Of a stretch of 64,000 nucleotides of DNA, positions 406 through 53,206 are shown piece by piece. The position numbers were made by a program, and so were the translations under genes. Position 1 is the first letter of the stretch, and every line of letters begins with the position of its first letter. The stretch is from an uncultured archaeon. GTDB lineage: Archaea > Aenigmatarchaeota > Aenigmatarchaeia > CG10238-14 > SCSR01. The stretch spans positions 323,110-387,109 of the forward strand of contig CAYJQI010000001.1 in the NCBI GenBank assembly GCA_964372485.1, given 5' to 3'. The notes below the pieces were generated by a model. It had not been told where the DNA came from and did no database searches. It saw only the letters and a list, made by a program, of their open reading frames with translations.

Positions 406-1653
406 ATGAAAATTTCGATCTTGTCAGATTTACACTTTGGATATTCTTATTCAACCGAACTGGATAATGATTCTTTCGATAATGCAGAAGAAGCTATACA
501 GAAATCACTTGATTCAGATATTATAATTCTTGCTGGTGATATTTTTGATATTCGTGCGCCTAAGACACAAACATGGGGGAAGGCCTTGAAGATATTATCA
601 AAACCACTTCTTCAAGAGAGTTCAGGTGTAAGTCTAGTAGAAACAGACAAGCAACTTAAAGACATATCCAAACGGACTTTGAATCATATTCCTGTCATAT
701 CAATTCACGGTAACCATGAACGTCTCGTTAAAGGTGATGTTAATACAGTTGAAGCTTTGGAGAATGCAGGATTGGTTATTCATCTCCATCTCAATACGAT
801 AATTTTTGAAAAAAATGGAACAAAAGTTGCAATACATGGAATGTCCTCAGTTCCTGAAAGATATGCTAAAGAAGTTCTTGATAGATGGAATCCTAAACCT
901 GTAGAAGGCTGTGTTAACATTCTTTTAATTCATCAAAGTATCGATCCTTACATTTATTCTCCCTTAGAACCACCAAGTATCAGTCTTTCGAACCTTCCAA
1001 AAGGATTTGATTTGATAATCAATGGTCATCTTCACGGACACAACGTAGAAAAGATAGATGACAAAACCACTTTGATAATGCCGGGAAGTACGGTGATAAC
1101 ACAATTTGAAAAAAATGAAGCGGTAACAGAAAAAGTAATTGCGCGAGCCATTATTGAGAATAATGTAGTTATAACGGAATTTGTACCTTTAGAAACAAAT
1201 AGGAAATTCTATTACGAGGAACTCGAACTTCAACAATCATCATTAACAGTGAGAGATCAAGTAGAGAGAAAGTTGGCACAGGTCATAGCGATGGCTGGGA
1301 ATAACAAAAAACCTGTGGTCAGATTACGTCTAAAGGGAAACGAATTTAATGTAATGGACAGCGAACTCAGGAATATAGAAAATAAATTCTCCGATAAGGC
1401 AATTTTGATACTTGTAAAGGAATTGGAATCCCAGGAAATTGCAGAGAAACGAGAACTTTTGAAAAGTTTACGTGAACAAAAGATGTCAATTGAAGAAATG
1501 GGACTTAATTTACTGAATAAAAATCTAGAAGAATTTGGAGCTGAGAAATCTATGGACTATGATACTTTATTCCATCTATTAAGCGATGACCAGACGGATA
1601 GTGTATTGAATATTTTACTTGGCGAACAAGCAACGTTGCAAAGATCATTATGA
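406..1653 (+). CDS. mre11: DNA double-strand-break repair nuclease Mre11.
   Basis: Calcineurin-like phosphoesterase motifs (DLHFG, GDIFD, HGNHE, GHLH). Start of rad50 overlaps its end by 4 nt. Confidence 0.9.
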   Translation: MKISILSDLHFGYSYSTELDNDSFDNAEEAIQKSLDSDIIILAGDIFDIRAPKTQTWGKALKILSKPLLQESSGVSLVETDKQLKDISKRTLNHIPVISIHGNHERLVKGDVNTVEALENAGLVIHLHLNTIIFEKNGTKVAIHGMSSVPERYAKEVLDRWNPKPVEGCVNILLIHQSIDPYIYSPLEPPSISLSNLPKGFDLIINGHLHGHNVEKIDDKTTLIMPGSTVITQFEKNEAVTEKVIARAIIENNVVITEFVPLETNRKFYYEELELQQSSLTVRDQVERKLAQVIAMAGNNKKPVVRLRLKGNEFNVMDSELRNIENKFSDKAILILVKELESQEIAEKRELLKSLREQKMSIEEMGLNLLNKNLEEFGAEKSMDYDTLFHLLSDDQTDSVLNILLGEQATLQRSL

Positions 1654-4016
1654 TTACAAAAGTAATATTGAAGAATTGGAGATCGCATCAGAATTCCACA
1701 TTGGGATTTTCTCCAGGAACTAATGCACTCATTGGAATAATGGGTAGCGGAAAAAGTTCAATATTGAATGCGATTTGTTTTGGTCTCTTTGGCACTAATC
1801 CAGAAATACAATCAAGAAAATTAAAACTAGACGAACTAATAACAAACAAACCAACACCTAAAGATCTTGCTGAAATAGAAGTATTTTTCAAAGTTGATGG
1901 AACTGAATATTCTGTGAAAAGAATAATTGAAAAAAGAAAAGGTACGTCATATTCTGAATTGCGAGTAAATGGGAAATTGCAAGAAGCACCTAGTACACAA
2001 AGAGTCAATGAACTTGTGGAAAAAATAATGAAAGTCGATTATGAACTTTTTAGCAAAGCAATCTATTCCGAACAAAACGCAATGGATTATTTCCTAACTA
2101 TTCCTAAAGGTCAACGAATGAGAAAGATCGATGAATTATTGATGATTGACAAATTTGAAAGGGCAAGAAGTAACACAATTTCATTAATAAACAGAATAAT
2201 AGAAAGAAAATCTGCAATGGAATCGTCACTTACGAATGTTAACATGACTGAACTTCAAAATACGATCGATAATCTAAAATCTTCTGTTGAAAATATTGTT
2301 AATGAGAAAGTTCAAATTGAAAAAAATATAAAACAAATCTCTCTTGAAAGAGCAACCTTGGAAAAGGAACTTCAGACTTTCTATAAAACTAAAGACAATT
2401 TTGATACTTTGAAAAGAGAAGAAATAGCTTTCTCAAGTGCAATCAATGAAATAGCATCTACTCTTAAAAAACTGGAGGAGTCATTAAAGGGAGTGAATGG
2501 GGATGATATAGAGAAAAATATAAAATCATTTTCAGATATTTCAACAAAATTAGAACAAACCTTTGCTGAAAGACAGGAAGAATATCATAAACTTGCAGAG
2601 CAATTTTCTAAAGCTAAAGCTGAAGCAGAAATGTACAAAAGAGAAACAATAAGTCGATTACAAAATGAGCTTGAGGAAAAACTTCAATTACAAAGGGATG
2701 CGAACAAATTCAAGAAGCAGATAGGTGGCAGTGTCGACAAGATAATGGAGGAGAAGAAGAAACTAGTTGAAAAGTACGTTGGTAAAATGGAAGCAATGCG
2801 AATTAAAATTGAGGATGCTACGAACATAATAGATCAATTGTCTTCCATAAAAGCAAAATGTCCAATATGTGAAGCAAAAATTACTGAAGCTAGAAAAATA
2901 ATTTTGATCAAGCAAAAGAAAGTTCAAGTTAAGGATTTGTATGAAGAAATGGAACATGCAGCGAAGCAAAAACAAATGAGTGAACAAGATCTCAAGGATC
3001 TTGAAATGTCGATTGTTAAATTAAATAGAATACTGGACGAAATAGAAAATTTGGATGCTATAAAGTCAAATCTGGAAAATGCTGAACATATATACAAAGT
3101 GTTAGAAGAAAGTTCTTTGAAACTAGAGAAGGAAATAAAAACTACACGAATAGATCTTGAAAAAATGTCGAAAACCCTATCAGAAACACGAAGTGAAAAA
3201 CAAAAGTATGATTTGATATCATTACAAATGAAAGATTATGAAACCAAGAAATCCAGAATAAATGAATTGATTAGACAAAGAGATGAAATAAACCGTCATC
3301 TACAAACTTTGGAAAAATTGGTAACAGGAAAAGAATCATCTTCTTTGGAGACAAGTTTGAGGAATCTTGTAGGTCAAGAAAGAGAACTGATGGCTAAATT
3401 AGCTGCTTTAGACCAAATTTTACTAGAAAGAGAAGTACGATTGAAGGAATTGGATTCTACCTTTACCAAAACTACAAAAGAAAGACAGAATATAAAGAAA
3501 TTCGAGGATTTGTCCGTACAATTAAAGATTTTTGAAAAATCACTCGAACAAACACAGATACAATTACGTCAAGAATTCATAACACTCGTCAATTATTCCA
3601 TGTCTCAATTATGGCAGACGCTTTATCCATATCAGGATTTCACAGGAATACGGTTGAATATTGATGAAGGAGATTATGTTTTGCAACTGCAATCACGAAA
3701 TGAATGGGTAAATGTTGAAGGTATTGCATCAGGTGGTGAGAGAAGTATAGCGGCTTTGACATTGAGGATTGCATTTTCCCTAGTTCTGGCGCCTAACCTT
3801 AGGATGATATTCTTGGACGAGCCTACACATAATCTAGATTCCAATGCCGTTGCTATGCTTTCATCTGTATTAAGGGAAAGAATAAATGAATTCATCGATC
3901 AGACATTTCTAATAACACACCAAAGCGAACTGGAGGAAGCTGTTACAGGCATGGCTTATCGATTGGAAAGAGATAAAGTAAATGATGGATATACTCAGAT
4001 CACACAATTAAATTAG
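1650..4016 (+). CDS. rad50: DNA double-strand-break repair ATPase Rad50.
   Basis: Walker A (GSGKSS), long coiled coil with a CPICEAK zinc hook, ABC signature (SGGERS) and Walker B (IFLDEP). Confidence 0.9.
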   Translation: MITKVILKNWRSHQNSTLGFSPGTNALIGIMGSGKSSILNAICFGLFGTNPEIQSRKLKLDELITNKPTPKDLAEIEVFFKVDGTEYSVKRIIEKRKGTSYSELRVNGKLQEAPSTQRVNELVEKIMKVDYELFSKAIYSEQNAMDYFLTIPKGQRMRKIDELLMIDKFERARSNTISLINRIIERKSAMESSLTNVNMTELQNTIDNLKSSVENIVNEKVQIEKNIKQISLERATLEKELQTFYKTKDNFDTLKREEIAFSSAINEIASTLKKLEESLKGVNGDDIEKNIKSFSDISTKLEQTFAERQEEYHKLAEQFSKAKAEAEMYKRETISRLQNELEEKLQLQRDANKFKKQIGGSVDKIMEEKKKLVEKYVGKMEAMRIKIEDATNIIDQLSSIKAKCPICEAKITEARKIILIKQKKVQVKDLYEEMEHAAKQKQMSEQDLKDLEMSIVKLNRILDEIENLDAIKSNLENAEHIYKVLEESSLKLEKEIKTTRIDLEKMSKTLSETRSEKQKYDLISLQMKDYETKKSRINELIRQRDEINRHLQTLEKLVTGKESSSLETSLRNLVGQERELMAKLAALDQILLEREVRLKELDSTFTKTTKERQNIKKFEDLSVQLKIFEKSLEQTQIQLRQEFITLVNYSMSQLWQTLYPYQDFTGIRLNIDEGDYVLQLQSRNEWVNVEGIASGGERSIAALTLRIAFSLVLAPNLRMIFLDEPTHNLDSNAVAMLSSVLRERINEFIDQTFLITHQSELEEAVTGMAYRLERDKVNDGYTQITQLN

Positions 4017-4048
4017 AATTTTATTACCCGGCAAATCAATTTTATTAT

Positions 4049-4444
4049 ATGAAATCTCAGGTCGCTCTAGAGTATCTTATGGTTATTGGGTTGGCATTGA
4101 TCGTTGTAATACCGTTCTTCTATTATGCATTAACGAATTCATCGGATTCCGTTCTTGTAGCTCAAACTCAGGATGTTGTAGATACTTTAGCAAAAACAAG
4201 TGACTATGTTTATTCTTTAGGTACTGGATCATCTACAAAAATTGAGATAACAATACCTGAAAATATTAAACGCAGTGCTTTGGAAGGTCATCTTATCATA
4301 CTCGAATTGCATACTAGTTCTGGTGTTACAAATGTTACGGCTTCTTCACGTGCAAATTTGATTGGCACTATACCGATAGAATCAGCTACATATTCAATAT
4401 TAGTCAATATGACAGGATCAAATGTGGAAATTAAGAAGGTTTAG
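4049..4444 (+). CDS. Pilin-like protein with a class III (type IV prepilin-like) signal peptide.
   Basis: N-terminus MKSQVALEYL followed by a hydrophobic helix (DUF361-like QxxLEY motif). Lies 32 nt after rad50. Confidence 0.6.
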   Translation: MKSQVALEYLMVIGLALIVVIPFFYYALTNSSDSVLVAQTQDVVDTLAKTSDYVYSLGTGSSTKIEITIPENIKRSALEGHLIILELHTSSGVTNVTASSRANLIGTIPIESATYSILVNMTGSNVEIKKV

Positions 4445-4446
4445 TT

Positions 4447-4860
4447 ATGAAAGGTCAGAGTGGATTTGAAGTCCTTATAGCAATCTCTTTAGTTCTGATA
4501 CTTTTAATTTTTTCCATAATAGCATATGTGACAAAACGCGGGGAGGTGGATTTTACACGAGAACATATAGAAGCACAAACAATTTGTTTTGAAATCAAAA
4601 ATGTGATAAATCAAATATTTTCTGATGGACCTGGTGCGAATTTGCCATTGAATGTTTCCAGTAAATTGGAAGATAATGATTTTAACGTGACTGTTAATTC
4701 TCCTAGCCGATCCATATCCGTTGAATGGAAAGGAAATGTATTTTCATGTACGATGGTCGTTCAAAATGTCACTAACAGTACTTTCAGTAAAATTTTCAAT
4801 ATAAAAAGCGGAACGTCGACTATAAAAAATGTTGAGGGAGTTGTTGTAATTGAACCGTAA
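4447..4860 (+). CDS. Pilin-like protein with a class III signal peptide.
   Basis: MKGQSGFEVL followed by a hydrophobic stretch. KG|Q is a PibD/EppA-type cleavage motif. Confidence 0.65.
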   Translation: MKGQSGFEVLIAISLVLILLIFSIIAYVTKRGEVDFTREHIEAQTICFEIKNVINQIFSDGPGANLPLNVSSKLEDNDFNVTVNSPSRSISVEWKGNVFSCTMVVQNVTNSTFSKIFNIKSGTSTIKNVEGVVVIEP

Positions 4861-5353
4861 AGGACAATTTATCACGACAGAACTTTTGGTAACAATGTCA
4901 ATTATAATATTTTTGTTCATTGTTGCTACATTCATGTGGAATACCATATCGGACAAAATTGTTGAAAACAGGGTAAGAAATGAAGTAAGAACTACTGCTA
5001 TAGATGTTTCCGATCAACTTTTAAAATCTAGTGGTGTCCCATCTGATTGGGAAACAAGGCCAGGTCAAAATTTTTCTATAGGACTAGTGGATAGAGACAA
5101 TAAACTAAACATAAATAAGACTTTGGAATTGAAAAAAATGAATTACCCTTCACTCAAAACTTCGCTAGGTGTATCTGCATATGGATTCTATTTTAAAGTT
5201 ACTGACCTTTTTGGAAATATTTTAAGTTATTCTGGAAATAATCTTGATGCCGGTTTAAAACCAACTTCAAATGCTAGTATGATAGTAAATTCCAAACGCC
5301 TAGCAATATGGAACAACAATATAGTTTCTGTGGATGTGGTATTATGGCTATGA
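4850..5353 (+). CDS. Pilin-like protein with a class III signal peptide.
   Basis: MNRKGQFITTELL followed by a TM helix. Overlaps the upstream gene by 11 nt. Confidence 0.6.
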   Translation: MNRKGQFITTELLVTMSIIIFLFIVATFMWNTISDKIVENRVRNEVRTTAIDVSDQLLKSSGVPSDWETRPGQNFSIGLVDRDNKLNINKTLELKKMNYPSLKTSLGVSAYGFYFKVTDLFGNILSYSGNNLDAGLKPTSNASMIVNSKRLAIWNNNIVSVDVVLWL

Positions 5354-6867
5354 GACATGGATTTGTTTTTAGCTTAGATACAGCTCTGGCAATTACGATT
5401 GCAATATTTTTAATTGCAGGAACTTTTTATTTTCTCAATGCCAATGAATCTGATGCGTTCAGTAGGTTATACATGACAAAATTTGCAAATGATCTTCTGA
5501 TAACCGCCGATAAAAATGGAACACTCGAAACATTGAACACGTCTTTCATAAGGAATATGTTATCCAATACGATCGCATCAAATTTTGCTTCTAAAATTAC
5601 AATCGATTCATATCAATGCTTTAATCAACAATGTCAAAATTTCAGCAAGACAAACACTACCATAATGTTCATTCCAACTGCAAAAATAGATGTTGTGCTT
5701 GTGTTTGACACATCGGGAAGTATGGATGATGATGGTATAGAGCAGTCTCCAGGAGTTTGTTTTAATCAACGGCAACCTATTTGTGATGCAAAAGAAGCTG
5801 CAAAAGGCTTTATTGATTTATTAGATCCTGTCAATGACAGATCTGGATTGGTTGCTTTTAATACTACTGCCATATTATCCAACCCTCTTACATATAATCA
5901 TGTGTCAATTAAAAATGGGTTGACAAACCTTGTTGCAAGTGGTAATACGGCTATAGGGGACGGAATAAATGTTGCAAATCAAGAACTTCAAAGTAACGGA
6001 AGACAAGATTCAAAATATTTTATAATACTTTTAACAGATGGTATGAACAATCAGGGGCTAGAACCGCTCATGGCTACCGACGATTCTGTGGATATTGGAG
6101 TTCCAATTTATACTATAGGATTAGGTGAAGATGTGAATGTAGAGCAACTTCAAACTATTGCAAATACTTCAGGAGGAAAATATTACTTTGCACCTACCAG
6201 TGATCAATTGGAAGGTATCTATAATGAAATAGCTGCGGATATTTTCGGAGAAGCTGATAATTATGTTATTGCACGGAGAAGTTTCCTTACTTTCGACAGT
6301 AATCGAATCAAATATTTCAACATTGCTGAAATACGAATGTGGTTGAGAGATATAATAACAGAGTTCCATCCAAAAAGTGTTTTCTATCATAGTTTTGAAG
6401 ATTTAGGTTGTGAGGGCGAAAATTGTTTCAATACTACGGTTTGGGATCCAATAGAAAGAGGTGGTGATAATAATGAAGCTACAACGCAAGATGCTCGTTC
6501 TTACACTGGCGATTTTTCTGCTGAACTGGAGGAAGGCGATGAAGGAGAAGTTGCACTTACCACTGCGGCAGGGTTAATAAATTTGGCTGGTTATTCGAGC
6601 TGTACTCTAAAACTATATGTTAATTTAGACAGTAACTGGGAAACGACTGATGATATTTTCCTAGACATATACGATGGCAGTTGGCACTATGGGGTTCTAA
6701 AAATAGACGGTGACCTGATCGATGATGATGAATGGCATCGTTTCAAGTTTTCCTTCACTTCACAGAACTATGTCTTCGATAACAATTTCCGATTAAGGAT
6801 AGATCATGAAGCGAGTGATGATAACGAAGAAGCATTTTACGATGATATAAGAATATTATGTTCCTAG
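5344..6867 (+). CDS. vWA (MIDAS) domain protein with a pilin-like N-terminus. Putative pilus adhesin.
   Basis: MAMRHG|FVFSLDTALAITIAI pilin-like N-terminus. vWA motifs DVVLVFDTSGSMDDD and LLTDGMNN. The track start at 5308 is probably an over-extension. Confidence 0.65.
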   Translation: MAMRHGFVFSLDTALAITIAIFLIAGTFYFLNANESDAFSRLYMTKFANDLLITADKNGTLETLNTSFIRNMLSNTIASNFASKITIDSYQCFNQQCQNFSKTNTTIMFIPTAKIDVVLVFDTSGSMDDDGIEQSPGVCFNQRQPICDAKEAAKGFIDLLDPVNDRSGLVAFNTTAILSNPLTYNHVSIKNGLTNLVASGNTAIGDGINVANQELQSNGRQDSKYFIILLTDGMNNQGLEPLMATDDSVDIGVPIYTIGLGEDVNVEQLQTIANTSGGKYYFAPTSDQLEGIYNEIAADIFGEADNYVIARRSFLTFDSNRIKYFNIAEIRMWLRDIITEFHPKSVFYHSFEDLGCEGENCFNTTVWDPIERGGDNNEATTQDARSYTGDFSAELEEGDEGEVALTTAAGLINLAGYSSCTLKLYVNLDSNWETTDDIFLDIYDGSWHYGVLKIDGDLIDDDEWHRFKFSFTSQNYVFDNNFRLRIDHEASDDNEEAFYDDIRILCS

Positions 6868-6900
6868 GATCTAATAATAAGCAAATACAATAAATAATTT

Positions 6901-7830
6901 ATGAAGGGAATTGTTTCTACGTTAATTATATTGTTAATTTTCACTGTATCTTTGTTACTTGCAATAAGCTTTTCATCTAAAACATTGGAACTGGATGATA
7001 TAGTAATACGAAATCTTGTGCTGGATAAGGTTTATAATACATTTATTTCAATAGAACATGCCGTTCAAGAATTGATGCTCTTTGTATCCCCAAATGGTGG
7101 AATTAATGTTACTATATCTGATCAAAATAACTTTACAATAGTTACTTTCAATGAAACATTACCACGATATGTAAACTCTTCTAAATTTAATGAAGATTTG
7201 GAGAACTTTGAAAGATTCGCAGAAACGAAACTAAACGAAACAAATATAGCAGTTGATTTAATTCTTGATGCTAAATGCCTTTCCTTCGTTATTCAACCAT
7301 ACAATATAACATATACACATAATCCTGGGATAGATTGTTTGAGTGTAAGTGCTCATACAGAAGTTGTTGTAGATCCACAATCCAGTTGGCAGTATGTGAA
7401 TGGATACTCGTTTATTTTCAGGCCAAATGGTAATTTATCTGGAGCATCTATTACAGGATGGAGCGGTCCAGGTTGCAATAAGCCAGGGTTAGGACTCAAT
7501 ATAACTATCGCAGGTAAAGATATCACATTAGGTCCTTCTGCGACTACCAGCAATTACAATAGAATGTGTAGATACAATATTGATGATATATCATGCCCGG
7601 CTGGATTAGGCTATATTCACCTTATCCATAATCAAAATTCCGACGTTACCGATAATGGTGTAGTAGATATAGAAATTCATCCTAATTGCAACATTACGTC
7701 GGCAGTGTCATTGAATTTGACTAAAACAACAGGAAAGGTAAGCGTAGAGTCACTTTTCCAAAAAATAAAGATAAAGGAAACCCTATATAGAATAGAAAAG
7801 AATGACACAATCCGGAATATTGGTGGTTAG
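6901..7830 (+). CDS. Secreted, sequon-rich protein with a pilin-like N-terminal TM segment.
   Basis: MKG|IVSTLIILLIF N-terminus, many N-x-S/T sequons and six Cys. Confidence 0.45.
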   Translation: MKGIVSTLIILLIFTVSLLLAISFSSKTLELDDIVIRNLVLDKVYNTFISIEHAVQELMLFVSPNGGINVTISDQNNFTIVTFNETLPRYVNSSKFNEDLENFERFAETKLNETNIAVDLILDAKCLSFVIQPYNITYTHNPGIDCLSVSAHTEVVVDPQSSWQYVNGYSFIFRPNGNLSGASITGWSGPGCNKPGLGLNITIAGKDITLGPSATTSNYNRMCRYNIDDISCPAGLGYIHLIHNQNSDVTDNGVVDIEIHPNCNITSAVSLNLTKTTGKVSVESLFQKIKIKETLYRIEKNDTIRNIGG

Positions 7831-8952
7831 TTGAGAACTATAATGGATATTATAAAAGATCTTTTGAATCGACGTCAAAAGCAAGTTGAAATCACACTTT
7901 CAGAGCCAATAGAACCTCCATCACAACCAATTAGAAAAGTTAAGAGAAGGGTTAAACGGGTTAGAAGAACAAAAGCAAAAATAAAAACTACTCGTACAAA
8001 ATCAGTTGTGAAAATTAAACCACCTCGAATAAGCACCGTTGCACCTGAGAAAGAAATTGAAATACCCAAAATTCAAGTTTCTTCAGTAGAGAAATTGCAA
8101 AAAATTCTAGAACAAAGTGATCTATCAACTTCTCCAAAACAAGAAAGTAATGTAATAAAACCTGCTCAAAAAAGTCGGTTTCATCTTAGTTTTCCATCAT
8201 TTCGAAGAATAAACAAATCTAGCGAACAAAAATTGCGATCACCAATTCCACATAAAACTAAAAAAGAATCATTTGTAACAAAAATTCCTACAGAGCATAT
8301 CACAGAAGCTATTGTTGCCGATGTTATGTCACGAGATGTTAGTTCATTAGAACCGAATGATACAATAAGTTACGCGATCAGATTATTTTCAGATAGAAAA
8401 ATAAGTGGTGCCCCAGTGGTGAAAGGTACCAATTTGGTAGGTATGTTGGTTGAATCTGATATAATAAAACTCATAGGAAGCAAGGAACTTTTATTAGGTC
8501 AGGGAAAGGGACTGAAATCTCTCGGGGAGATTAAAGTGGAAGGTGTTATGCATAGAAATCCAATTACTGTGCGTGAGTATACAAAATTATCTGAAGTAGC
8601 GGATTTGATGAATAAATACGGAATCACACAAATACCAGTTTTAGATGAGCGACGAGAATTAACTGGAGTTTTATCACGTAGCGATATAATGCGTGCAGTC
8701 TCCAAGAAATTATTATTCAAGTTATTACAAAAACACGAAGTACAGGAGGTTATGAAAGTAGATACGGATATTGATGAGATTCTTCAAATTGTTGAAAGGA
8801 GAGGATCGATCGGGATGGATGAAATTCAGAAAAGATTAACAATACCTGAAGACAAAATTGAAGAATGGGGTAAGATTCTAGAAAGACATAACTTGATTGA
8901 GATGTTCTATCCCCCTATTGGAAAGCCAGAATTTAGGAAGAAGATATCATGA
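7831..8952 (+). CDS. CBS-pair domain protein with a basic low-complexity N-terminus and a winged-helix-like C-terminus. Putative regulator.
   Basis: K/R-rich repeats (RKVKRRVKRVRRTKAK), two CBS-like modules (VMSRDV ... GAPVV ... GVMHRNPITV ... IPVLD). Its stop overlaps the ATPase start. Confidence 0.7.
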   Translation: MRTIMDIIKDLLNRRQKQVEITLSEPIEPPSQPIRKVKRRVKRVRRTKAKIKTTRTKSVVKIKPPRISTVAPEKEIEIPKIQVSSVEKLQKILEQSDLSTSPKQESNVIKPAQKSRFHLSFPSFRRINKSSEQKLRSPIPHKTKKESFVTKIPTEHITEAIVADVMSRDVSSLEPNDTISYAIRLFSDRKISGAPVVKGTNLVGMLVESDIIKLIGSKELLLGQGKGLKSLGEIKVEGVMHRNPITVREYTKLSEVADLMNKYGITQIPVLDERRELTGVLSRSDIMRAVSKKLLFKLLQKHEVQEVMKVDTDIDEILQIVERRGSIGMDEIQKRLTIPEDKIEEWGKILERHNLIEMFYPPIGKPEFRKKIS

Positions 8953-10481
8953 AGGAAAATGAAGTAATTGCAAAATATTTTATAGAGGGGTATAAGGTTA
9001 AAGCAGAAGTTAGTGTTGAACGAACTATAAAGGAATTTGTTCCATTATATGTTTTGAAACTCCCCGAGATACAGCCAGCCACTTTGGCTTTGATGGATCA
9101 GATAAGAGAAAAGATTTTAGCACAAGCTGCAATTAAGACGACAGAATTATTAGAACCAAAAGCTTTCGAAGACCTCAAAGTAAAATTTTATGAAAGGGCT
9201 TATGAATTAGTTAGCAGAGAATTGGCAAATGAAACTCAAAACGTGTGGCAGTTTCTTGCTGGTATGCTTGTTTATGAGATGTTGGGTTTAGGTAGATTGG
9301 AACTTTTAATTGCTGATGGGGAACTTGAGGATATTGTAATCAACAATGCAGAAGATCCGATATGGGTATATCATAGAAAACATGGATGGCTTAAAACCAA
9401 TGTTGTAGTCCCCTCAGAATCACAAATTCAAAATTATGCTGCAACAATCGGACGAAGAGTTGGTAGACAAATAACTACACTGGCTCCATTGATGGATGCT
9501 CACATGACGACAGGTGATAGGGTTAATGCCACGTTATTCCCTATCAGTACTTCTGGAAATACGATAAGCATACGAAAATTCAGGAGAAAACCATGGGTAA
9601 TTACCGAACTTTTAGAAAGCAACACATTGTCTTTGGATATAGCCGCTTTATTGTGGTTGGCGATTCAGTATGAAAGTAATGTGATTTTCTCAGGTGGAAC
9701 AGGGTCTGGTAAAACAACTTTTCTAAATGTTCTGATGCCATTTATCCCGCCAAATCAAAGAATACTCAGCATAGAAGATACACGAGAGATTCAATTACCA
9801 AGATTCTTGCACTGGGTTCCATTAACAACTAGAGAACCAAACCCTGAGGGTAAAGGTGGAGTTTCAATGTTGGACCTTCTTGTGAATAGCTTGCGTATGA
9901 GGCCAGATAGAATCGTTGTCGGTGAGATTAGAAGAGGTGAACAGGCAGAGGTTTTGTTTGAAGCAATGCATACAGGTCACAGTGTTTATGCAACACTTCA
10001 CGCAGATACAGCAGAGCAAACTTATCGAAGATTGATTAATCCACCAATTAATGTTCCGCAGACATTGTTAGAAGCATTGCATCTTATTGCGGTTGCCTTC
10101 AGAGATAGAAGAAAAGGTATACGTAGAATTTTCCAAATAGCTGAAATTGTTCCGGTAACAAAATGGGAAGAGTACAGTCCACATATTAACGTTTTGTACA
10201 AATGGAATCCTGCAGACGATATAATTAAAAAAGTTAAAGAAAGTGTGCGAGTTTTAGATGAATTGAAACTGCATACAGGAATGACTGATCAAGAATTCCA
10301 AAAGGATTTGATAGAAAAAGCATCCATCTTAAAATGGATGAAGGATAAGAAAATCAATACAGTCGATGGTGTAGGAAAAGTAGTTGTTGAATATTATTTT
10401 GACCCCGATAAAGTTTTGAGTGTTGTTAAAAAGAATGAGAATCCGACAACGCTTGTTCCACCGGCACTGCTTCAGGTGTGA
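8949..10481 (+). CDS. Type IV pilus / secretion ATPase, FlaI/TadA/VirB11 family.
   Basis: Walker A FSGGTGSGKTTFLNV, followed by IEDTREIQL and His-box-like motifs. Confidence 0.85.
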   Translation: MKENEVIAKYFIEGYKVKAEVSVERTIKEFVPLYVLKLPEIQPATLALMDQIREKILAQAAIKTTELLEPKAFEDLKVKFYERAYELVSRELANETQNVWQFLAGMLVYEMLGLGRLELLIADGELEDIVINNAEDPIWVYHRKHGWLKTNVVVPSESQIQNYAATIGRRVGRQITTLAPLMDAHMTTGDRVNATLFPISTSGNTISIRKFRRKPWVITELLESNTLSLDIAALLWLAIQYESNVIFSGGTGSGKTTFLNVLMPFIPPNQRILSIEDTREIQLPRFLHWVPLTTREPNPEGKGGVSMLDLLVNSLRMRPDRIVVGEIRRGEQAEVLFEAMHTGHSVYATLHADTAEQTYRRLINPPINVPQTLLEALHLIAVAFRDRRKGIRRIFQIAEIVPVTKWEEYSPHINVLYKWNPADDIIKKVKESVRVLDELKLHTGMTDQEFQKDLIEKASILKWMKDKKINTVDGVGKVVVEYYFDPDKVLSVVKKNENPTTLVPPALLQV

Positions 10482-11386
10482 ATATGCCTCAACGCCGTAT
10501 ACCATTTGTACTTTTTTCCACTAATAGAATTTTAAATTATTCAAGGAGCCTTGGATTATTTGGTATAGGTAATCGAATTTCAAAATTATTTCCATTCCTT
10601 TCACTTTACTTGTATCAATCAGAATCAACTCATGACGCAGGTGAATATGTTTCTATCGCCCTTTTTTCTGCTATTACATGGTTTATAATTCCATTCTCAT
10701 TCGGAATGTTTCTTTCATTAGTAGCGACACTTCCTTCTAATTTTCCTTTAATTATTACAGCGGTCTCTTTTGCAATGTTTGGATTATCATTTTTGTATAT
10801 AATTTTTTATCCCAGAGTATTTGTTACAAGAAGAACTCGTGAGTTGGAGAAGAATTTGCTATTCGCATTAAGACATTTGATGATTCAGGCAAAATCTGGT
10901 ATACCTCTTTTTGATTCGATGGCATCTGTCGCACGCGCAAATTATGGTTTGGTATCCAAAGAATTCAATGAAGTTGTTCGAAGGATCAGTACAGGAGTAA
11001 GAGATGTAGAGGCGTTGGAAGAATTGGCTTTGAAAAATCCATCATTATACTTCCGACGAGCTCTTTGGCAAGTGTCAAATGCAATTCGAGTCGGAGCTGA
11101 TATAGGAAACACATTGGAAATTATCATACAAAATCTTGCGAATGAACAAAGAATACTTGTAAGAAAATACGGTTCACAACTTAATCCTCTTGCATTTCTT
11201 TACATGATGTTTGGTGTAATAATGCCAAGTTTAGGCATAGCATTGTTGATAATATTATCATCTTTCGCAGGATTGCCAATTAAAAAATATTTCTTCTGGG
11301 CGATTTTGGGATTTCTGGTTATTTTCAAGTTTAACTTTCTTGGAATAGTCAAAAGCAGAAGACCATCGGTGGAAGTTTATGTATAG
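10478..11386 (+). CDS. Pilus platform membrane protein, first half (TadB/FlaJ-like T2SSF domain).
   Basis: Polytopic membrane protein with one T2SSF-like domain. Overlaps the ATPase gene by 4 nt. Confidence 0.7.
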   Translation: MNMPQRRIPFVLFSTNRILNYSRSLGLFGIGNRISKLFPFLSLYLYQSESTHDAGEYVSIALFSAITWFIIPFSFGMFLSLVATLPSNFPLIITAVSFAMFGLSFLYIIFYPRVFVTRRTRELEKNLLFALRHLMIQAKSGIPLFDSMASVARANYGLVSKEFNEVVRRISTGVRDVEALEELALKNPSLYFRRALWQVSNAIRVGADIGNTLEIIIQNLANEQRILVRKYGSQLNPLAFLYMMFGVIMPSLGIALLIILSSFAGLPIKKYFFWAILGFLVIFKFNFLGIVKSRRPSVEVYV

Positions 11387-12362
11387 ATTCTTTTATGCAC
11401 TCAGCCCTGTGAAATACAGGAAGTGGGTTACACAACAACTCAACTATTGTGATTTTTCAGTATCGCCAATAAAATTAATTGGTTTCTTGATAATTTTTGG
11501 TCTGATGGCAGGATTTGCTGCAGGTTTACTTTTGTACGGATTTGGGATTGTCGGATTAATTGGTTTTCTTATTACTTGGATAGCGGTGTTGATGGGTTTT
11601 GAAATATTGAGTCATCTCACTTTGATTTTCGTTGCAGATGGCAGAGCAAATTTCGTAGAACAGATTTTACCGGATGCACTACAGATAGTTTCTGCAAATA
11701 TGCGTTCAGGATTGACTCCAGATAAGGCAATTTTGACATCGGCACGACCGGAATTTGGTCCACTTGAGAAAGAATTGAGAAAAGCAGCAAAGGAGACTTT
11801 ATCGGGTAAATCTTTCGAAGATGCGTTGAAAGGGGTTACTGCAAAAATTAAATCAAAAAGTTTAGATAAGACAATTGCACTTGTTGTTGAAGGATTATCG
11901 AAAGGCGGAAGCATAACAAGTCTATTGGATAGCGTGGCAGATGATATAAGACAGGCTCGAGTGCTCAGAAATGAAATAAAATCATATGTCATGATGTATG
12001 GAATATTTATTTTCTTTGCAGCTGGTGTCGGAGGACCTTTGCTTTACTCTGTTGCAACGTATTTGATACAAACAATGACAACTATTGGGGGCTCTGTTGA
12101 TTTGGGAGATTCTTTGACACAATCTTCAATACCATTGCTTAAATTTGGATCGGCTGAGATAGATGTGGATTTCTTACGAACGTATTCCTATATTGCTATA
12201 GTAGTGACAGCATTTTTTGGTAGTTTGTTGATAGGACTGGTTCAGGAAGGCACTGAAAAAGGTGGTTTGAAGTTTTTCCCGATTCTTCTAGTTGTTGGAT
12301 TGGGCGTTTTTACAGTAACTCAGATCGCTCTAAAAGGTATTTTTGGTACACTTGCGGGATAG
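11379..12362 (+). CDS. Pilus platform membrane protein, second half (TadC/FlaJ-like T2SSF domain).
   Basis: Second T2SSF-like domain with TM helices. Overlaps the previous gene by 8 nt in a different frame. Confidence 0.7.
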   Translation: MYRFFYALSPVKYRKWVTQQLNYCDFSVSPIKLIGFLIIFGLMAGFAAGLLLYGFGIVGLIGFLITWIAVLMGFEILSHLTLIFVADGRANFVEQILPDALQIVSANMRSGLTPDKAILTSARPEFGPLEKELRKAAKETLSGKSFEDALKGVTAKIKSKSLDKTIALVVEGLSKGGSITSLLDSVADDIRQARVLRNEIKSYVMMYGIFIFFAAGVGGPLLYSVATYLIQTMTTIGGSVDLGDSLTQSSIPLLKFGSAEIDVDFLRTYSYIAIVVTAFFGSLLIGLVQEGTEKGGLKFFPILLVVGLGVFTVTQIALKGIFGTLAG

Positions 12363-12388
12363 TGCTTTATAAGGCAGGAAAACGAAAT

Positions 12389-12874
12389 ATGAGTTATATG
12401 TTTAAAATAGTACGAAAAGGCCAAACGGCTTTGGAATACTTGATGACTTACGGGTGGGCTATATTGATAGTAATCATTGCTATCGGTGCCCTTTACGCTT
12501 TAGGACTTACAAAACCATGTAGATGGACAGGAACACAAATAACAGGATTCACAGGTGGTGGATTCGAAGCATCTGTTCCGAGATTTAGTGGAGGTGGCGA
12601 CGATCTAGTATTGGACTTCAAAAGAATCGGAGCCAATTCAGTAAATTTCTATCACGCAAATGCAACGTACAAGACAGCACATATCGACTTGAACTCAACT
12701 GAACCTAATGCGATATTGGCGACAGGCGCAACAAAAACAGTCACATTTGATTTCAATCCTCCAGAAGATTCATCATCCGGTGACTGCTATGCAGTTGATA
12801 TAATACTAGGCTACAGCGAAAGTGGAAGAAATTTCACAGCAGCAGGTCGAGTTAGCGGAACAATTGAAACTTAA
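12389..12874 (+). CDS. Pilin with a class III signal peptide.
   Basis: MSYMFKIVRKG|QTALEYLMTYGWAILIV. The track start at 12362 is a GTG extension. Confidence 0.65.
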   Translation: MSYMFKIVRKGQTALEYLMTYGWAILIVIIAIGALYALGLTKPCRWTGTQITGFTGGGFEASVPRFSGGGDDLVLDFKRIGANSVNFYHANATYKTAHIDLNSTEPNAILATGATKTVTFDFNPPEDSSSGDCYAVDIILGYSESGRNFTAAGRVSGTIET

Positions 12875-12875
12875 A

Positions 12876-14378
12876 TCACATAAAAGTCTCTAAATCAGTA
12901 GCACTAAGATTAGAATCAGCGAAACCCAAAAGTTCGTCTTCAAGATTTTTTCCTTTCCCAATTATTTTACTTTTTCTTTCTCTTACATTAACCAAAATAG
13001 GGTAGTTCACAGCTTCTCCAACAATAAATGCTTCACCAACTTTTAATCCTGGAATTGAACTTAATATACCGCTTGTAATTCCTTCTGAACTTTCTTTTAT
13101 ATGATCGAGGTCGTACGGGTTAGTTACACGCATAATGATGTCGGTATTGCATTGTGAAAGTGCGGTTGTAGCTAATCCGGCAGGTCTTTGTGTTATCAAT
13201 GTTAAACAAGCATTAAACTTTCTACCTTCACGAGCTATTTGTTCGATTATACTTCTAGATAATGCAAGATCATGTTCTTCGCCTTCCGGTGCGAATTGAT
13301 GCGCCTCTTCTACAAATAAAACGAATGGAGATATTTTCTTTTGTCGTCTCGCTTCGAATAATTTCCATGCAAAGTAAGCAACAATTATTTGTTTTCTTTT
13401 AATGTCCACAATATCCGACAAATCAAAAATACTTAGATTTCCTTTGAATGCAAGATCCTTTATCGAAGGATAGTCTCTGTTGGAAAATAATCCTGTATAT
13501 TCAATTTCATGCAACCAAGATGCCAGAACTTCTTTTGTATTGTCTTTAATCTCACTTTTCAATACTGCATCAATAAGATCTTGCATGTTGTATGTAGGTT
13601 TTTCTTCCCTGAGTTTTCTAATCACAGGTCCAAGTTCTCTTCTTTGAACAGCAGAAATTTTTGGCTGTAAAACTGAAAGTTGATATGCAGACAAACTATT
13701 CGTCGATATACTGATTTCATTTGCATTGTAAACTTTGGTGGATAATCTATACTTTTCATCCTGCGCAAATCCACTATATTCACCATGCGGATCCACAATA
13801 ATTACAGACGGCCTTGCATTTCTTTCTCTGTTAAGAAGTTCTTCCAATAAAACTGAAGTTAAATATGATTTTCCTGCACCGGACATTGCAAGTATGGCTA
13901 GATGTTTTTGGAATAGTTTTGTAATATTAATTTTAGCATCGATATTATGAAATTCAACTTTACCAAGATTCAATCCAGAATTAACATCCAATCCCAAAGC
14001 ATTGTTCAATAAAGTTTCATCAATTGGAAATACATCATTCCCAGGTGATGGGGGAAATGTTACTCGTTTTTGCATTCCATTAGAGAAAATTCCTAAAGGA
14101 CGCGCCTGAGCAATTAAATATTCCCATCTATCAACAGGAAATTGATCGATGAGAGGTTTGCCTGAACGTTCAAATTCACTCACAGATTCTGCACGTTGAT
14201 AATAACGGTTGGTTTTTATAATATCTTCCACTCGAGCAACTAGAACTCCATCTTGAGTGTCCAATTGAATAAATTCACCTTTCCTTACAGGCACACCTTT
14301 ATTCTCATTTAGAACGAACCAGAATTCCGTACTGTTTGGGCCTAGCTCAGATGAAATAACTGTGCCAATCTCTCGCAT
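12876..14378 (-). CDS. herA: HerA-like (DUF87) FtsK-superfamily ATPase.
   Basis: N-terminal barrel, Walker A MSGAGKS, IVDPHGEY, Walker B VEEAHQF and a QRPAGL C-terminus. Convergent with the last pilin gene. Confidence 0.75.
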   Translation of the reverse strand: MREIGTVISSELGPNSTEFWFVLNENKGVPVRKGEFIQLDTQDGVLVARVEDIIKTNRYYQRAESVSEFERSGKPLIDQFPVDRWEYLIAQARPLGIFSNGMQKRVTFPPSPGNDVFPIDETLLNNALGLDVNSGLNLGKVEFHNIDAKINITKLFQKHLAILAMSGAGKSYLTSVLLEELLNRERNARPSVIIVDPHGEYSGFAQDEKYRLSTKVYNANEISISTNSLSAYQLSVLQPKISAVQRRELGPVIRKLREEKPTYNMQDLIDAVLKSEIKDNTKEVLASWLHEIEYTGLFSNRDYPSIKDLAFKGNLSIFDLSDIVDIKRKQIIVAYFAWKLFEARRQKKISPFVLFVEEAHQFAPEGEEHDLALSRSIIEQIAREGRKFNACLTLITQRPAGLATTALSQCNTDIIMRVTNPYDLDHIKESSEGITSGILSSIPGLKVGEAFIVGEAVNYPILVNVRERKSKIIGKGKNLEDELLGFADSNLSATDLETFM

Positions 14379-19156: not shown

Positions 19157-21499
19157 TCATTTGCTTTCAGTAATAGTTTTCTTTTTGCGGCCAAACATTG
19201 AAAAGAATTTTTTCAATCCAGTCGGTTTCTTTTCGTCAGCAGGTTTTGCGAATACATATCCGGTTGCAGTTCTATATCCTTTCTTCGATGGCCAGAACAA
19301 GTACCCTACAAATGCTACGATGACTATAATAAGAATCACTACAACTATTATCCAAACACTCGAAGACACGTTCAATAATCCGTTAGGCTCGGCAGATTCA
19401 ATTCGTGCCTCAATTTCTGCAATGAGAGCTTGGACAATATCCAAAGTTTCTTCTGCGTTGAAATAATCGTTAGCGGTTATGTAATCTTCGGCTTGCTTCA
19501 ATGCAGCTTTCAATTCGTTTAATTTTTGTTCTATAGGCTCAGTATTGTTTGTAGTATTTTTAATTGCGTTAAATTCACTTTCCAATTTACTTGCTTCTAA
19601 TTTGTATAAAATTAATGTATCATTTATCTTAATTTTTGTTTCAGCCGATGGAAGAATTCTTAATGTGAAATCTTTTGTTACTGTTGTGTTTGTGCTACTT
19701 GCAGAGAATTTTGCAGCATAATCCCTTATATCAAATCCTTTTATTGTGAATGTAATTGTATATGAAAGTGTCTGTCCTATTGCAAATTTCTTAGTCGCTT
19801 GATCAATAGTATACCAACTTTTATCGAGATCTAGTATATCCAAAGTTATGTTTTGTTCAACCCCACCAGTGTTTTTAATTTTAATTTCTGTTATATTGGT
19901 TTGGTTCTGGATTATCTCTATCAATTGAGGATATTGGATGAAGCTTATGCTGGCCGATGGAGTGAGTTTTATAGACAATGTATTCTTACTGGTTCCAGTT
20001 GTGTAATTTTGATCTGAAGTGCTGTTACAAAGATATTCATATTTGCTTCCTGCAGTGAAGGTTTGTGTTTCGGGATTACTTACAGACGTCAAGTTTCTGT
20101 ATAGATTCGCTGTTAATCCACTCACTCCTACCGAACAAGTTACAACAGTTTGCACAGGAGTGTCCAATTCCCATTGAGGAGATATTGTAAGAGTTAATGG
20201 TGCAGCGGCTTTATTAATTGTAAATGATGTTGATGGAGTTAAATTGAATACATGATCCTGATATTTTCCAAATATTCTCCATGAATGAGTGCCGGCCGGC
20301 AAGGAAGCATTATAATAATAGTAAAGACTCGAGTTTGTTAAAGTGAAATTTTGAGTTGTACTCCATCCTCCTTCTATGAACGAAGTTACAAAGCCAGGAT
20401 TACTTGCAAATGTTGTGTTGAATATGCTATAAGTTGTGTTTGAAAATGTAAGAGGGATATTTGATGTGGTTGTTGTATAACTTGGAACTGTTGCAACAAA
20501 ATAAGTTGCAGTATTTGTGCTATAGTTAGTATTTGTAGCAACGGTAACAGTATAGTTATGCAATCCTATTGATGTAATCACATCATTTATCGTGTATGTG
20601 TTAGGAACACCAGACGCAACTGTTGTGGTGTTGTCTCTCGTTATCGTAACATTACAATTGGTTTGAGAACATGTTGCATTTGTAGTTATGTTGATTGCGG
20701 TATTGTTTATAGCTGTTATGTTTGTGTTTAATGACCCATTTAGATATACTTTTAATGTGTTGGTCGCTTTCGCTACTAAATATGTGAATTGAATTGTTGA
20801 ATTGAATGTGTTGTTTGTGTCATTTGCATATACTCTCCAAACATACGTACCGGCAGAAAGATCGGAAGTGTTGAAATAATACACACTGCTTGAATTGCTC
20901 ATTGTTTCGTTATGGATGGTAGAGCTTCCTGTTATATTGTGTTCTAACAAAACTTTTGAAATCCCCACATTATCTGTCCATGTTATGTTAAACCAGTAAC
21001 TTTGATTTTGAGCATAACTAGTGTTTGAGCTTGGAGTTGTTGTATTGCTTGAATATGCAGGAGCGATGATGTCAAATAATGTTAATGATACATTGTTGGA
21101 AGTAAATGCACCGGTTATGTCTGTTGTTGATATGTTGAATCCATTACTTCCAGTTGATAGCGGAGTGTCGACGTATATCCAGAAATATTGTGTGGCTCCA
21201 TTTCCAATTAGTCCCAGTATAGAACTATTTGTCCATGCAGGAGAAGATGATGAAGCTGTATAAGGGTTTGTATTTGTTGTACCGGAGCTTCCCGTGAATG
21301 CAAATCCAGGAGGTAGTGTGATATTCAAGTGGGTGATGTTTACAGATCCTGTATTTGCAATAGAAAAGTTGATTAGTTGACTGCTTTGTCCAGATGCAAG
21401 TGTTGTTGGGCTGGAACTAGCTGTAAATGTCGCAGCTAAAGAAGTGCTCACTACGATAAAGAAAGCCAATAAAGAAAAGAGAATAATCAATCTTGTCAT
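19157..21499 (-). CDS. Large cell-surface protein with many N-glycosylation sequons (S-layer or adhesin candidate), C-terminal TM anchor.
   Basis: Signal peptide, T/N/S-rich with dozens of N-x-T/S sequons, internal repeats, and a C-terminal hydrophobic helix followed by a basic tail. Confidence 0.6.
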   Translation of the reverse strand: MTRLIILFSLLAFFIVVSTSLAATFTASSSPTTLASGQSSQLINFSIANTGSVNITHLNITLPPGFAFTGSSGTTNTNPYTASSSSPAWTNSSILGLIGNGATQYFWIYVDTPLSTGSNGFNISTTDITGAFTSNNVSLTLFDIIAPAYSSNTTTPSSNTSYAQNQSYWFNITWTDNVGISKVLLEHNITGSSTIHNETMSNSSSVYYFNTSDLSAGTYVWRVYANDTNNTFNSTIQFTYLVAKATNTLKVYLNGSLNTNITAINNTAINITTNATCSQTNCNVTITRDNTTTVASGVPNTYTINDVITSIGLHNYTVTVATNTNYSTNTATYFVATVPSYTTTTSNIPLTFSNTTYSIFNTTFASNPGFVTSFIEGGWSTTQNFTLTNSSLYYYYNASLPAGTHSWRIFGKYQDHVFNLTPSTSFTINKAAAPLTLTISPQWELDTPVQTVVTCSVGVSGLTANLYRNLTSVSNPETQTFTAGSKYEYLCNSTSDQNYTTGTSKNTLSIKLTPSASISFIQYPQLIEIIQNQTNITEIKIKNTGGVEQNITLDILDLDKSWYTIDQATKKFAIGQTLSYTITFTIKGFDIRDYAAKFSASSTNTTVTKDFTLRILPSAETKIKINDTLILYKLEASKLESEFNAIKNTTNNTEPIEQKLNELKAALKQAEDYITANDYFNAEETLDIVQALIAEIEARIESAEPNGLLNVSSSVWIIVVVILIIVIVAFVGYLFWPSKKGYRTATGYVFAKPADEKKPTGLKKFFSMFGRKKKTITESK

Positions 21500-39316: not shown

Positions 39317-40009
39317 CTATTTTTTAATAGACACGCCATTTTTCGAAATTTCGAATGGATATATATCAGTTCCATGTGACGTTCTCCTCATTTTTCTTAC
39401 CATTAAACTTCTAGGAGTTCCACCTGCTGCATATTCCAAATAATTGAGCATTACTACACCATCTGCAAGAAATTCTTCAAACCCAAATCTGCTCAATGCT
39501 TTCACATCATTTTCAGGAACTTCTGTTATCAACAAACTCGTCACCCCTAATTGCTTCAAAGTTTTCATATAACCAAAAGTCTCACTTCTTATTTTAGTAA
39601 CATCCAACGCTCCCATTCTCCACCCCATTGTTGCAATTGATAAACTATCCAAAACAAATCTCGTCGCACCCGTTTTCTTTACAACTTCAGCTGTTTGCAT
39701 GGTAAGATCTTCTATACTTGTTGGTTCGAGTGCGATTAATGAAAATCTTCCTTGCTTGATGTAATTTTTCAGTTCCACATCCCATCCGAATGCAGCAACA
39801 TCTGCTAATATTTCATCAACTTCTTCACCAAGAGAAATGTATAATCCTTTCTCACCACTTTTCAATCCATGTAAAAGATATTGTGTACTGAAAATTGTCT
39901 TTCCAGCACCTGTTTGTCCGGCTAGAAGATTAACAGAACCTTTCACCAGCCCACCTTGTATGAGTTTATCCAATCCAGGAATACCAGTCTCGATTCTTTC
40001 AGTAGGCAT
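39317..40009 (-). CDS. KaiC/RadA-like single-domain RecA-superfamily ATPase.
   Basis: GIPGLDKLIQGG plus Walker A AGQTGAGKT. Confidence 0.75.
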   Translation of the reverse strand: MPTERIETGIPGLDKLIQGGLVKGSVNLLAGQTGAGKTIFSTQYLLHGLKSGEKGLYISLGEEVDEILADVAAFGWDVELKNYIKQGRFSLIALEPTSIEDLTMQTAEVVKKTGATRFVLDSLSIATMGWRMGALDVTKIRSETFGYMKTLKQLGVTSLLITEVPENDVKALSRFGFEEFLADGVVMLNYLEYAAGGTPRSLMVRKMRRTSHGTDIYPFEISKNGVSIKK

Positions 40010-40018
40010 AATAATTAT

Positions 40019-53165: not shown

Positions 53166-53206
53166 ACAGCACCTTTATAAAATATTTGGTGACCGCTTTT
53201 TAAATA

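Follow-up and report, generated by a model that had tools for sequence, protein, structure and literature searches.

The window analysed here is a stretch of 64,000 nucleotides (nt) from an uncultured archaeon of the Aenigmatarchaeota (contig CAYJQI010000001.1, positions 323,110 to 387,109), in which positions 4049-12874 carry ten densely packed open reading frames (ORFs), g1 to g10, all co-directional on the plus strand. We consider it probable that these genes make up the complete structural operon, the peptidase apart, of a DPANN-type archaeal type IV pilus (T4P) in an Aenigmatarchaeota-like genome, the bearer of which is probably a tiny symbiotic archaeon. Carrying this reading are the gene content and domain composition of the locus, the signal motifs of its pilin-like proteins, the residues of a metal ion-dependent adhesion site (MIDAS) in one of them, and the conservation of two gene modules across DPANN lineages. 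A first-pass annotation had described a T4P locus with a split Tad/Epd-style platform, comprising nine or ten co-directional genes with gaps of -46 to +33 nt, five or six proteins with class III signals (among them a von Willebrand factor A (vWA) protein of about 500 amino acids (aa)), a CBS-domain protein, a FlaI/TadA-class ATPase, two half-size T2SSF genes and a terminal pilin. This parts list is borne out throughout, with ten ORFs, gaps as described and six proteins (g1-g5 and g10) bearing the signals. However, its further claim that the gene set is unusual does not hold: the same modules in the same order are the norm in 80 related DPANN loci, and the family has been published.

The assembly core consists of an ATPase and two platform proteins. 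The product of g7 (8949-10481; 510 aa) is a pilus assembly ATPase of the T2SSE family (Pfam, E=8.9e-37), in which the Walker A (GGTGSGKT), Asp box (EDTRE), Walker B (IVVGEIR) and His box (GHSVYATLH) motifs are all present. Among solved structures it is closest to Archaeoglobus fulgidus GspE (2OAP; 231 bits over nearly the full length), followed by FlaI (181 bits) and CpaF (174 bits); we take the A. fulgidus protein to belong to Makarova clade 2, i.e., the euryarchaeal T4P. The platform is encoded by g8 (10478-11386) and g9 (11379-12362), each with a single T2SSF domain (PF00482; E=2.3e-16 and 1.9e-15, respectively), and the two proteins are only 19% identical to each other. The g8 protein aligns with positions 14-249 of an ArlJ profile of 555 positions, and g9 with positions 360-553 of the same length of profile and 267-464 of another of 465. 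Because g8 thus matches the N-terminal and g9 the C-terminal half of the ArlJ profiles, they are the equivalents of the respective halves of ArlJ/FlaJ, and the platform is a collinear fission of an ArlJ/PilC-like protein. Many clade 2 loci likewise have two tadC genes (Makarova, PMC4858521). Only one further ATPase of the window could be confused with a pilus motor, namely a 607-aa protein encoded on the minus strand (23968-25791), which by sequence reading looks like a combination of a PIN domain, a P-loop ATPase and a KH domain, and belongs to a non-pilus family that bears the PilT name.

The best NCBIfam matches of the core, namely FlaI for the ATPase and ArlJ for g8 and g9, speak for the locus being an archaellum, i.e., a rotary motility filament, or else a bindosome or secretion pseudopilus. 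Yet g7 reaches just 280 bits with the FlaI model, the cutoff of which is 550, along with 207 bits for TadA and 141 bits for BasE against a cutoff of 1000. Searches with Pfam and NCBIfam returned no match to the archaellum parts ArlF, ArlG, ArlH, ArlCDE and ArlX or to archaellins among the ten locus proteins, the only families matched being VWA, CBS, T2SSE and T2SSF; nor was a substrate-binding protein with a class III signal detected in the locus. Moreover, a split platform is not an archaellum feature. Such an identity is hence scarcely tenable.

To place the locus in context, one genome per GTDB species was scanned with the ATPase as the query, which recovered 80 related loci whose ATPases are 46-79% identical to g7. 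These span Aenigmat-, Woese-, Pace-, Nanohalo-, Micr- and Parvarchaeota as well as unclassified Nanoarchaeota, with the closest named relatives of g7 coming from Ca. Aenigmatarchaeota; g7 itself is encoded at 100% identity on a contig of 791 kb. Together with the Logan copy of the window's own locus (L001) they give 81 loci, in all of which ORFs were called and onto which family hidden Markov models seeded with the window proteins were mapped back, the iteration possibly having stopped short of a third round. Within these bounds, the core genes are nearly universal, with g7 present in 81, g8 in 80, g6 in 79 and g9 in 75 loci; the pilin-like genes g1 to g4 occur in 62, 59, 55 and 54, g10 in 35 and g5 in 20. 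The genes fall into two modules, g1-g2-g3-g4 and g6-g7-g8-g9, whose internal order is kept even when a module is inverted or split. Three arrangements are seen: the tandem one of the window, a divergent one, and a third in Pacearchaeota and some Woesearchaeota in which g2-g1 are divergent and g3-g4 lie downstream of the platform genes. Since both modules recur with the same family-specific motifs in the 80 related loci, the gene set of the window is the standard DPANN arrangement. In several of the Pacearchaeota and Woesearchaeota loci (L058, L065, L073 and others) the longest ATPase ORFs begin about 250 codons upstream of the homologous region, which suggests a lineage-specific N-terminal extension, the start codons there being uncertain.

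The pilin-like proteins share an N-terminal architecture in which a short basic leader ending in [KRH][GS] is followed by a hydrophobic stretch of about 20 residues (in the motifs below, an arrow marks the predicted cleavage position). These N-termini do read as class III signals: each family retains its own motif in orthologues, which come from as many as 60 other loci, and the motifs are therefore not a product of chance. The first minor pilin, g1 (4049-4444; 131 aa), begins MKS↓QVALEY with a glutamate at +5, and in 60 of the 67 members of its family [KR]G↓Q..xEY precedes a transmembrane (TM) segment. The second, g2 (4447-4860; 137 aa), begins MKG↓QSGFE, again with glutamate at +5, in a family of the form KG↓Q....E with a class III-like N-terminus in 58 of 67 members. 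In the third, g3 (4850-5353; 167 aa), the start MNRKG↓QFITTE places the acidic residue at +6, agreeing with a conserved family motif KG↓Q....D/E across orthologues in 55 loci; its N-terminus also shows a weak ComGE-like match (NCBIfam, E=0.047). The g4 family displays KG↓FxFSxDA-type N-termini, with which MRHG↓FVFSLD of the window protein is in accord. A fifth pilin-like extracellular protein, g5 (6901-7830; 309 aa, with 11 N-glycosylation sequons and 6 cysteines), begins MKG↓IVSTL without an acidic residue near +5; its family, too, has KKG↓ILLTLG-type N-termini lacking the acidic residue in 18 of 20 loci. The six pilin-like proteins contain 1.5-3.6 sequons per 100 aa as against 0-0.8 in the cytoplasmic and membrane proteins, and within the locus this enrichment is confined to them.

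The terminal gene, g10 (12362-12874), encodes the probable major pilin, which from its probable start at ATG 12398 would have 158 aa and begin MFKIVRKG↓QTALEYLMTYGW. The family consensus is RKG↓QSAIEYLMTYGW, and the residues G8, Q9, E13, L15, T17, Y18 and G19 do not vary among 25 aligned orthologues that represent six DPANN lineages. This bears out its earlier designation as a terminal pilin, even though the Class_IIIsignal and Pilin_N matches of g10 and its family in Pfam are sub-threshold or weak. After the conserved core comes a C-terminal domain that is rich in beta structure and about 110 aa long, and g10 and its orthologues alike have about 140-170 aa with such a domain. On these sequence features, g10 is likely to be the major pilin. 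Elsewhere in the window lie two tandem stand-alone genes on the minus strand (52713-53165 and 53207-53602) for pilin-like proteins of a different class, beginning MKG↓VSTIIATILM... and MKA↓ISDIIGNLIM..., with weak Pfam Pilin_N and Arch_flagellin matches and a conserved C-terminal cysteine; the same machine, or the same peptidase, may act on these proteins too.

The fourth pilin, g4 (5308-6867), is a modular protein combining a pilin with a vWA domain. Its longest ORF has 519 aa, and the probable start at 5350 gives 505 aa. Pfam places the VWA domain at residues 128-306 (E=5.6e-20), and the MIDAS residues D120, S122, S124, T200 and D230, which satisfy the DxSxS...T...D pattern, are invariant across 40 aligned sequences. 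An AlphaFold2 model (mean predicted local distance difference test (pLDDT) score 70) shows an N-terminal pilin helix with a beta-sheet, a high-confidence vWA domain at 112-300 and two further strands at 305-331. Foldseek comparison of the model against the PDB retrieved vWA domains along with the minor pilin PilB of Streptococcus sanguinis (7B7P/7BA2), aligned over about 335 columns with E-values of 5e-12 to 1e-10 and about 19% identity. Like g4, PilB is a pilin module bearing a vWA/MIDAS adhesion module; it differs in being bacterial and in lacking the extra C-terminal domain of about 170 residues that g4 possesses. That domain is homologous to part of two giant pilins of other Aenigmatarchaeota. 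Close full-length homologues of g4 are rare, there being six orthologues with a query coverage of 65-66%, or 37% in one case. Of the 54 orthologous fourth-position pilins, 26 carry a vWA domain; these 26 are proteins of 800-1400 aa that begin like g4 and hold the domain internally, in most cases with DxSxS. Because these long vWA pilins with the same N-terminus hold the fourth position elsewhere, g4 is a shorter form of a candidate tip adhesin that is both modular and widespread. Large pilin-like proteins of this general type, one of 629 aa among them, already exist under an arCOG label.

Between g5 and g7 lies g6 (7831-8952), which codes for a cytoplasmic partner or regulator with a basic disordered N-terminus, a pair of CBS domains (Pfam, E=5.7e-29) and a C-terminal domain without a significant Pfam family. 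In the AlphaFold2 model (mean pLDDT 85) the CBS pair is followed by a unit of helix-strand-helix-helix-strand-strand at model residues 164-221, a predicted winged-helix (wH) topology; Foldseek returned matches to the CBS pair alone and was uninformative on this domain. Orthologues were queried separately with the CBS segment and with the 77-aa C-terminal segment. The wH-like domain was recovered in 79 of 79 g6 orthologues and the CBS pair in 8, all of the Aenigmatarchaeota type. Thus, the universal part of g6 is its C-terminal wH-like domain, and the CBS pair is a lineage-specific add-on of the Aenigmatarchaeota type. In nearly all orthologues from Woesearchaeota, Pacearchaeota and other or unspecified Nanoarchaeota the domain comes after 1-4 TM segments; in the nanohaloarchaeal proteins a long coiled coil comes after it; and in Micrarchaeota and Parvarchaeota it stands alone. 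In 79 of 81 loci the gene for the wH-domain protein immediately precedes that of the ATPase, and it nearly always abuts or overlaps the ATPase start, the overlap in the window being 4 nt. When used alone as a query, the wH domain retrieves 835 clusters at 50% identity. Beyond the CBS domains, family members show fusions to the archaeal domain of unknown function DUF2226 (P0387) or to membrane regions, as in one member with a multi-TM C-terminal region (L009:8420-9964).

Two functions may be weighed for g6. Its main rival identity to a part of the motor is that of an ordinary DNA-binding transcription factor, in which the winged helix and the CBS ligand sensor would jointly regulate the operon. 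This agrees with the predicted topology of the C-terminal domain, with the commonness of CBS-HTH regulators in archaea (arCOG00608) and with the transcription regulators noted in T4P loci (Makarova 2016, PMC4858521). However, the placement of the domain on 1-4 TM segments or a long coiled coil in other lineages would be unusual for a DNA-binding regulator, and the gene persistently holds a mid-operon position next to the ATPase start. We therefore regard a purely regulatory role as being on the unlikely side, and propose instead that g6 is a membrane-proximal partner of the pilus motor. A location close to the membrane is favored because in one orthologue (L058) the wH domain follows a TM hairpin both ends of which are predicted to be cytoplasmic. 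As a possibility that we put forward tentatively, and on balance still doubt, the wH domain could mark a cytoplasmic subunit that all DPANN pilus motors share and that has so far escaped recognition, a functional counterpart of TadZ, ArlX or GspL. If so, it would carry lineage-specific modules, namely TM anchors in some lineages, a coiled coil in another and, in that of the window, a CBS pair sensing nucleotides; pilus assembly in Aenigmatarchaeota would be gated by the status of adenylates or other adenosine ligands; and the host would be selected by the vWA-MIDAS modular pilin at the pilus tip.

DPANN archaea are thought to need physical contact with their host cells, and pili are the leading candidates for establishing it. 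For the roles of the subunits, the contact between g6 and the ATPase, the CBS ligand and the adhesion target we infer the following scheme. The six prepilins (g1-g5 and g10) would enter the membrane, where an A24 peptidase whose gene lies outside the locus would cut them after [KR]G. Situated beneath the g8 and g9 platform, the ATPase g7 would polymerise the major pilin g10, itself probably transcribed from its own TATA promoter. The products of g1-g4, and perhaps that of g5, might form a priming or tip complex, in which the vWA/MIDAS module of g4 could serve as a metal-dependent adhesin touching a surface or a host cell. As the cytoplasmic partner of the motor, g6 may dock via its wH domain on the ATPase or the platform, and in the Aenigmatarchaeota-type lineage its CBS pair could couple assembly to an adenosine-nucleotide signal.

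Several points weigh against this picture. The products of g1, g2, g3 and g5 have no significant family in Pfam or NCBIfam, and the C-terminal domain of g4 (335-505) is left unmodelled, with pLDDT below 50. The identity of the major pilin is uncertain, in that the two stand-alone Pilin_N-type pilins (52713-53602) could be substrates as well. The proposed contact of g6 with the ATPase rests on gene adjacency, translational overlap and the membrane anchoring of orthologues, and its winged helix could equally bind DNA. In the literature, neither a filament nor processing nor adhesion has been demonstrated for any member of the locus family. Finally, Pfam searches with every multi-TM ORF of at least 110 aa revealed no A24 prepilin peptidase in the locus, as had been noted initially, or in the 64 kb window; the families that such ORFs of the window did match are YdjM, TctA and SpoIIM, with two others having no significant family.

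The peptidase bears on how the locus relates to the Epd pili of Methanococcus maripaludis (Makarova clade 1 or System 1), which resemble it in their split platform, multiple minor pilins and Q+1/E+5 signals, and which have an adhesion role of the kind proposed for the window pilus. It might thus be a true Epd orthologue that works in the same way, its differences being the result of divergence. Consistent with this are the two half-size platform genes, the Q(+1)/E(+5)-type signals with an EY motif and the presence of DPANN among the hosts of System 1; nevertheless, the preprint that reports the latter (10.64898/2026.04.22.720090) places DPANN split or two-platform systems under subsystem 4A as well as System 1. 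Among the systems compared, Epd is the only one reported to keep a dedicated peptidase, EppA, often in its gene context (PMC4858521). A 9-TM EppA was found neither in the window (Pfam and a motif scan) nor in about 10 kb around the 80 loci (motif scan); the scan for GxG[DE]x[KR] in multi-TM ORFs, crude and no more than indicative, gave no candidate in the window or in any of the 81 loci. A locus without a peptidase gene is ordinary for archaeal T4P. As Epd alone is reported with its own EppA, the absence of the enzyme argues against membership of Epd and not against the function of the locus. Further, Epd has a second ATPase, which is FlaH-like, and the locus lacks any secondary ATPase of the KaiC/FlaH type; the candidate major pilin has about 150 aa and a globular domain in contrast to the very short tail-less Epd type of about 70 aa (PMC4858521); and among solved structures the ATPase is nearest to the A. 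fulgidus GspE rather than to CpaF. Taken together, orthology to Epd is distinctly unlikely, and a DPANN-type T4P is the better description.

The bacterial Tad/Flp systems (CpaF/TadA, TadB, TadC, TadE/F/G) offer another point of comparison, as they share with the window the succession of an accessory protein, an ATPase and two platform genes, together with a G↓xxxxEY motif in the major pilin, and the vWA pilin of the window is analogous to TadG (PMC4858521). They differ in having the MinD-like ATPase TadZ/CpaE next to TadA, for which there is no counterpart in the locus, where g6 takes that position. The platform order is also reversed: in Tad, TadB (the C-terminal half) is followed by TadC (the N-terminal half) (PMC6668835), whereas in the window the N-terminal half comes first. 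Additionally, the major pilin of the window has a globular domain, and there is no secretin.

The genes flanking the locus invite the alternative that the pilus is mainly a competence-like DNA-uptake device, rather than an adhesin, feeding a symbiont auxotrophic for nucleotides. Upstream lie mre11 (406-1653, plus strand) and rad50 (1650-4016, plus strand), and downstream a convergent herA (12876-14378, minus strand) whose stop codon is one base past that of g10. Together with this setting, the weak ComGE-like N-terminus of g3 and the proposal of DNA import by DPANN pili (PMC9563170) would accord with uptake. Nonetheless, L002, the nearest relative, is alone among the related loci in having Mre11, Rad50 and close HerA homologues at its flanks; we therefore dropped the DNA-repair context as a functional link, and it probably reflects lineage synteny. 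Neither the ORF list nor Pfam drew attention to a ComEA/ComEC-like gene or a nuclease within the locus, and a vWA-MIDAS module is typical of adhesins. We accordingly consider a primary role in DNA uptake to be very unlikely, and adhesion remains the function we favor.

The locus family as such is already reported and known bioinformatically, though experimentally uncharacterised, and the window is not an exceptional member. Hence, on the question of whether a near-identical locus had been characterised before, the answer is that it has been described computationally but not by experiment; a literature search yielded no experimental study of a DPANN pilus. Two conserved T4P loci with CpaF, TadC and coiled-coil proteins were described across Aenigm-, Woese-, Pace-, Nano- and Nanohaloarchaeota, and proteomics of Ca. 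Nanohaloarchaeum antarcticus picked up proteins of such loci (Hamm et al. 2024, Nat Commun, PMC11291902). The "cluster 2 DPANN" loci of that study match the window family in their lineages and in a core of an ATPase with a TadC-type platform; comparably, the 80 genome loci share a conserved, syntenic ATPase/platform region in g6-g7-g8-g9, most of them also having g1-g4. In the nanohaloarchaeal loci studied here, the protein encoded directly 5' of the ATPase gene, with its wH domain and coiled coil, fits by description the "CCP" of Hamm et al., and the CCPs are plausibly orthologues of g6; at the CCP position the window has the CBS and wH protein in place of a coiled-coil protein. Hamm et al. 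annotate only CpaF, TadC, FlaF/PilA and CCP, and their main text and the supplements consulted yielded no description of the g1-g4 quartet, the vWA pilin, the shared wH domain or the CBS variant. Elsewhere, DPANN pilus islands have been noted to contain unannotated, unrecognisable "dark" pilins (Makarova et al. 2019, PMC6393860), and a study of Nanohaloarchaeota annotated TadA, TadB and TadC but no pilins in its DPANN genomes (PMC9563170).

Against this background, the novelty of the present analysis is modest: it lies in the quartet of pilins with its fixed order and a signal motif for each family, the modular pilin with a vWA-MIDAS unit, the collinear fission of the platform, and the recognition of one winged-helix-like domain common to the CBS, TM and coiled-coil proteins encoded upstream of the ATPase. 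In conjunction, the window locus and its 80 relatives supply a consistent parts list for proteomics, cryo-electron tomography and genetics in the few cultivated DPANN archaea. It comprises what is likely the major pilin, whose core GQxAxE[YF]LxTYGW is invariant, the four minor pilins in their set order, a modular pilin with a vWA-MIDAS unit for the tip, the split platform and a winged-helix ATPase partner with lineage-specific modules.

The successive junctions from g1 to g10 measure +2, -11, -46, +33, 0, -4, -4, -8 and -1 nt, of which the 46-nt overlap of g3 and g4 is an artefact of choosing the longest ORF, the ATG at 5350 overlapping the g3 stop as ATGA. The NCBI/Logan gene calls place the start of g6 four codons and that of g8 two codons later than the longest ORFs; the corresponding g6 protein (P0121; 369 aa) starts with MDII at about 7843 and is 100% identical over 99% of g6. 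The G+C content is about 35% across the whole window. Upstream of g1, A/T-rich TATA-like elements at 4019-4047 (plus strand) form a probable operon promoter, with TTTTATTA at 4019-4026 lying about 26 nt ahead of the g1 ATG at 4049. A TATA box (TTTATAA; 12366-12372, plus strand), spaced about 26 nt from the downstream ATG at 12398, is a probable separate promoter for g10, the transcript of which would be leaderless if translation begins there. Similarly, TATA-like hexamers are enriched 5' of g1 orthologues and rare 5' of g2-g4, and canonical CTTTTTATAAAG elements precede most of 34 g10 orthologues. Because TATA elements thus precede g1 and g10 but are rare before g2-g4, the predicted signals fit one operon starting at g1, with the major pilin expressed from a promoter of its own that is probably stronger.

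Other genes of the window recall components of pili or of the cell surface. On the minus strand, 39317-40952 includes a KaiC/RecA-like ATPase of 230 aa with the motif GQTGAGKT, after which come two genes for small membrane proteins; a regulatory role in archaeal pili has been proposed for KaiC-like ATPases. At a distance of 33 kb from the locus, 45722-46477 (plus strand) codes for what by sequence reading is a stand-alone MinD/ParA-like P-loop ATPase (GKGGVGKTT). The FleN/MinD family arCOG00589, comprising relatives of TadZ, has been tied to clade 1 and clade 2 pili as unlinked genes (Makarova 2016; Denise 2019). Finally, a 780-aa secreted protein encoded at 19157-21499 (minus strand), rich in threonine and serine, with many NxS/T sequons and a C-terminal TM anchor, looks like a candidate S-layer protein or surface adhesin.

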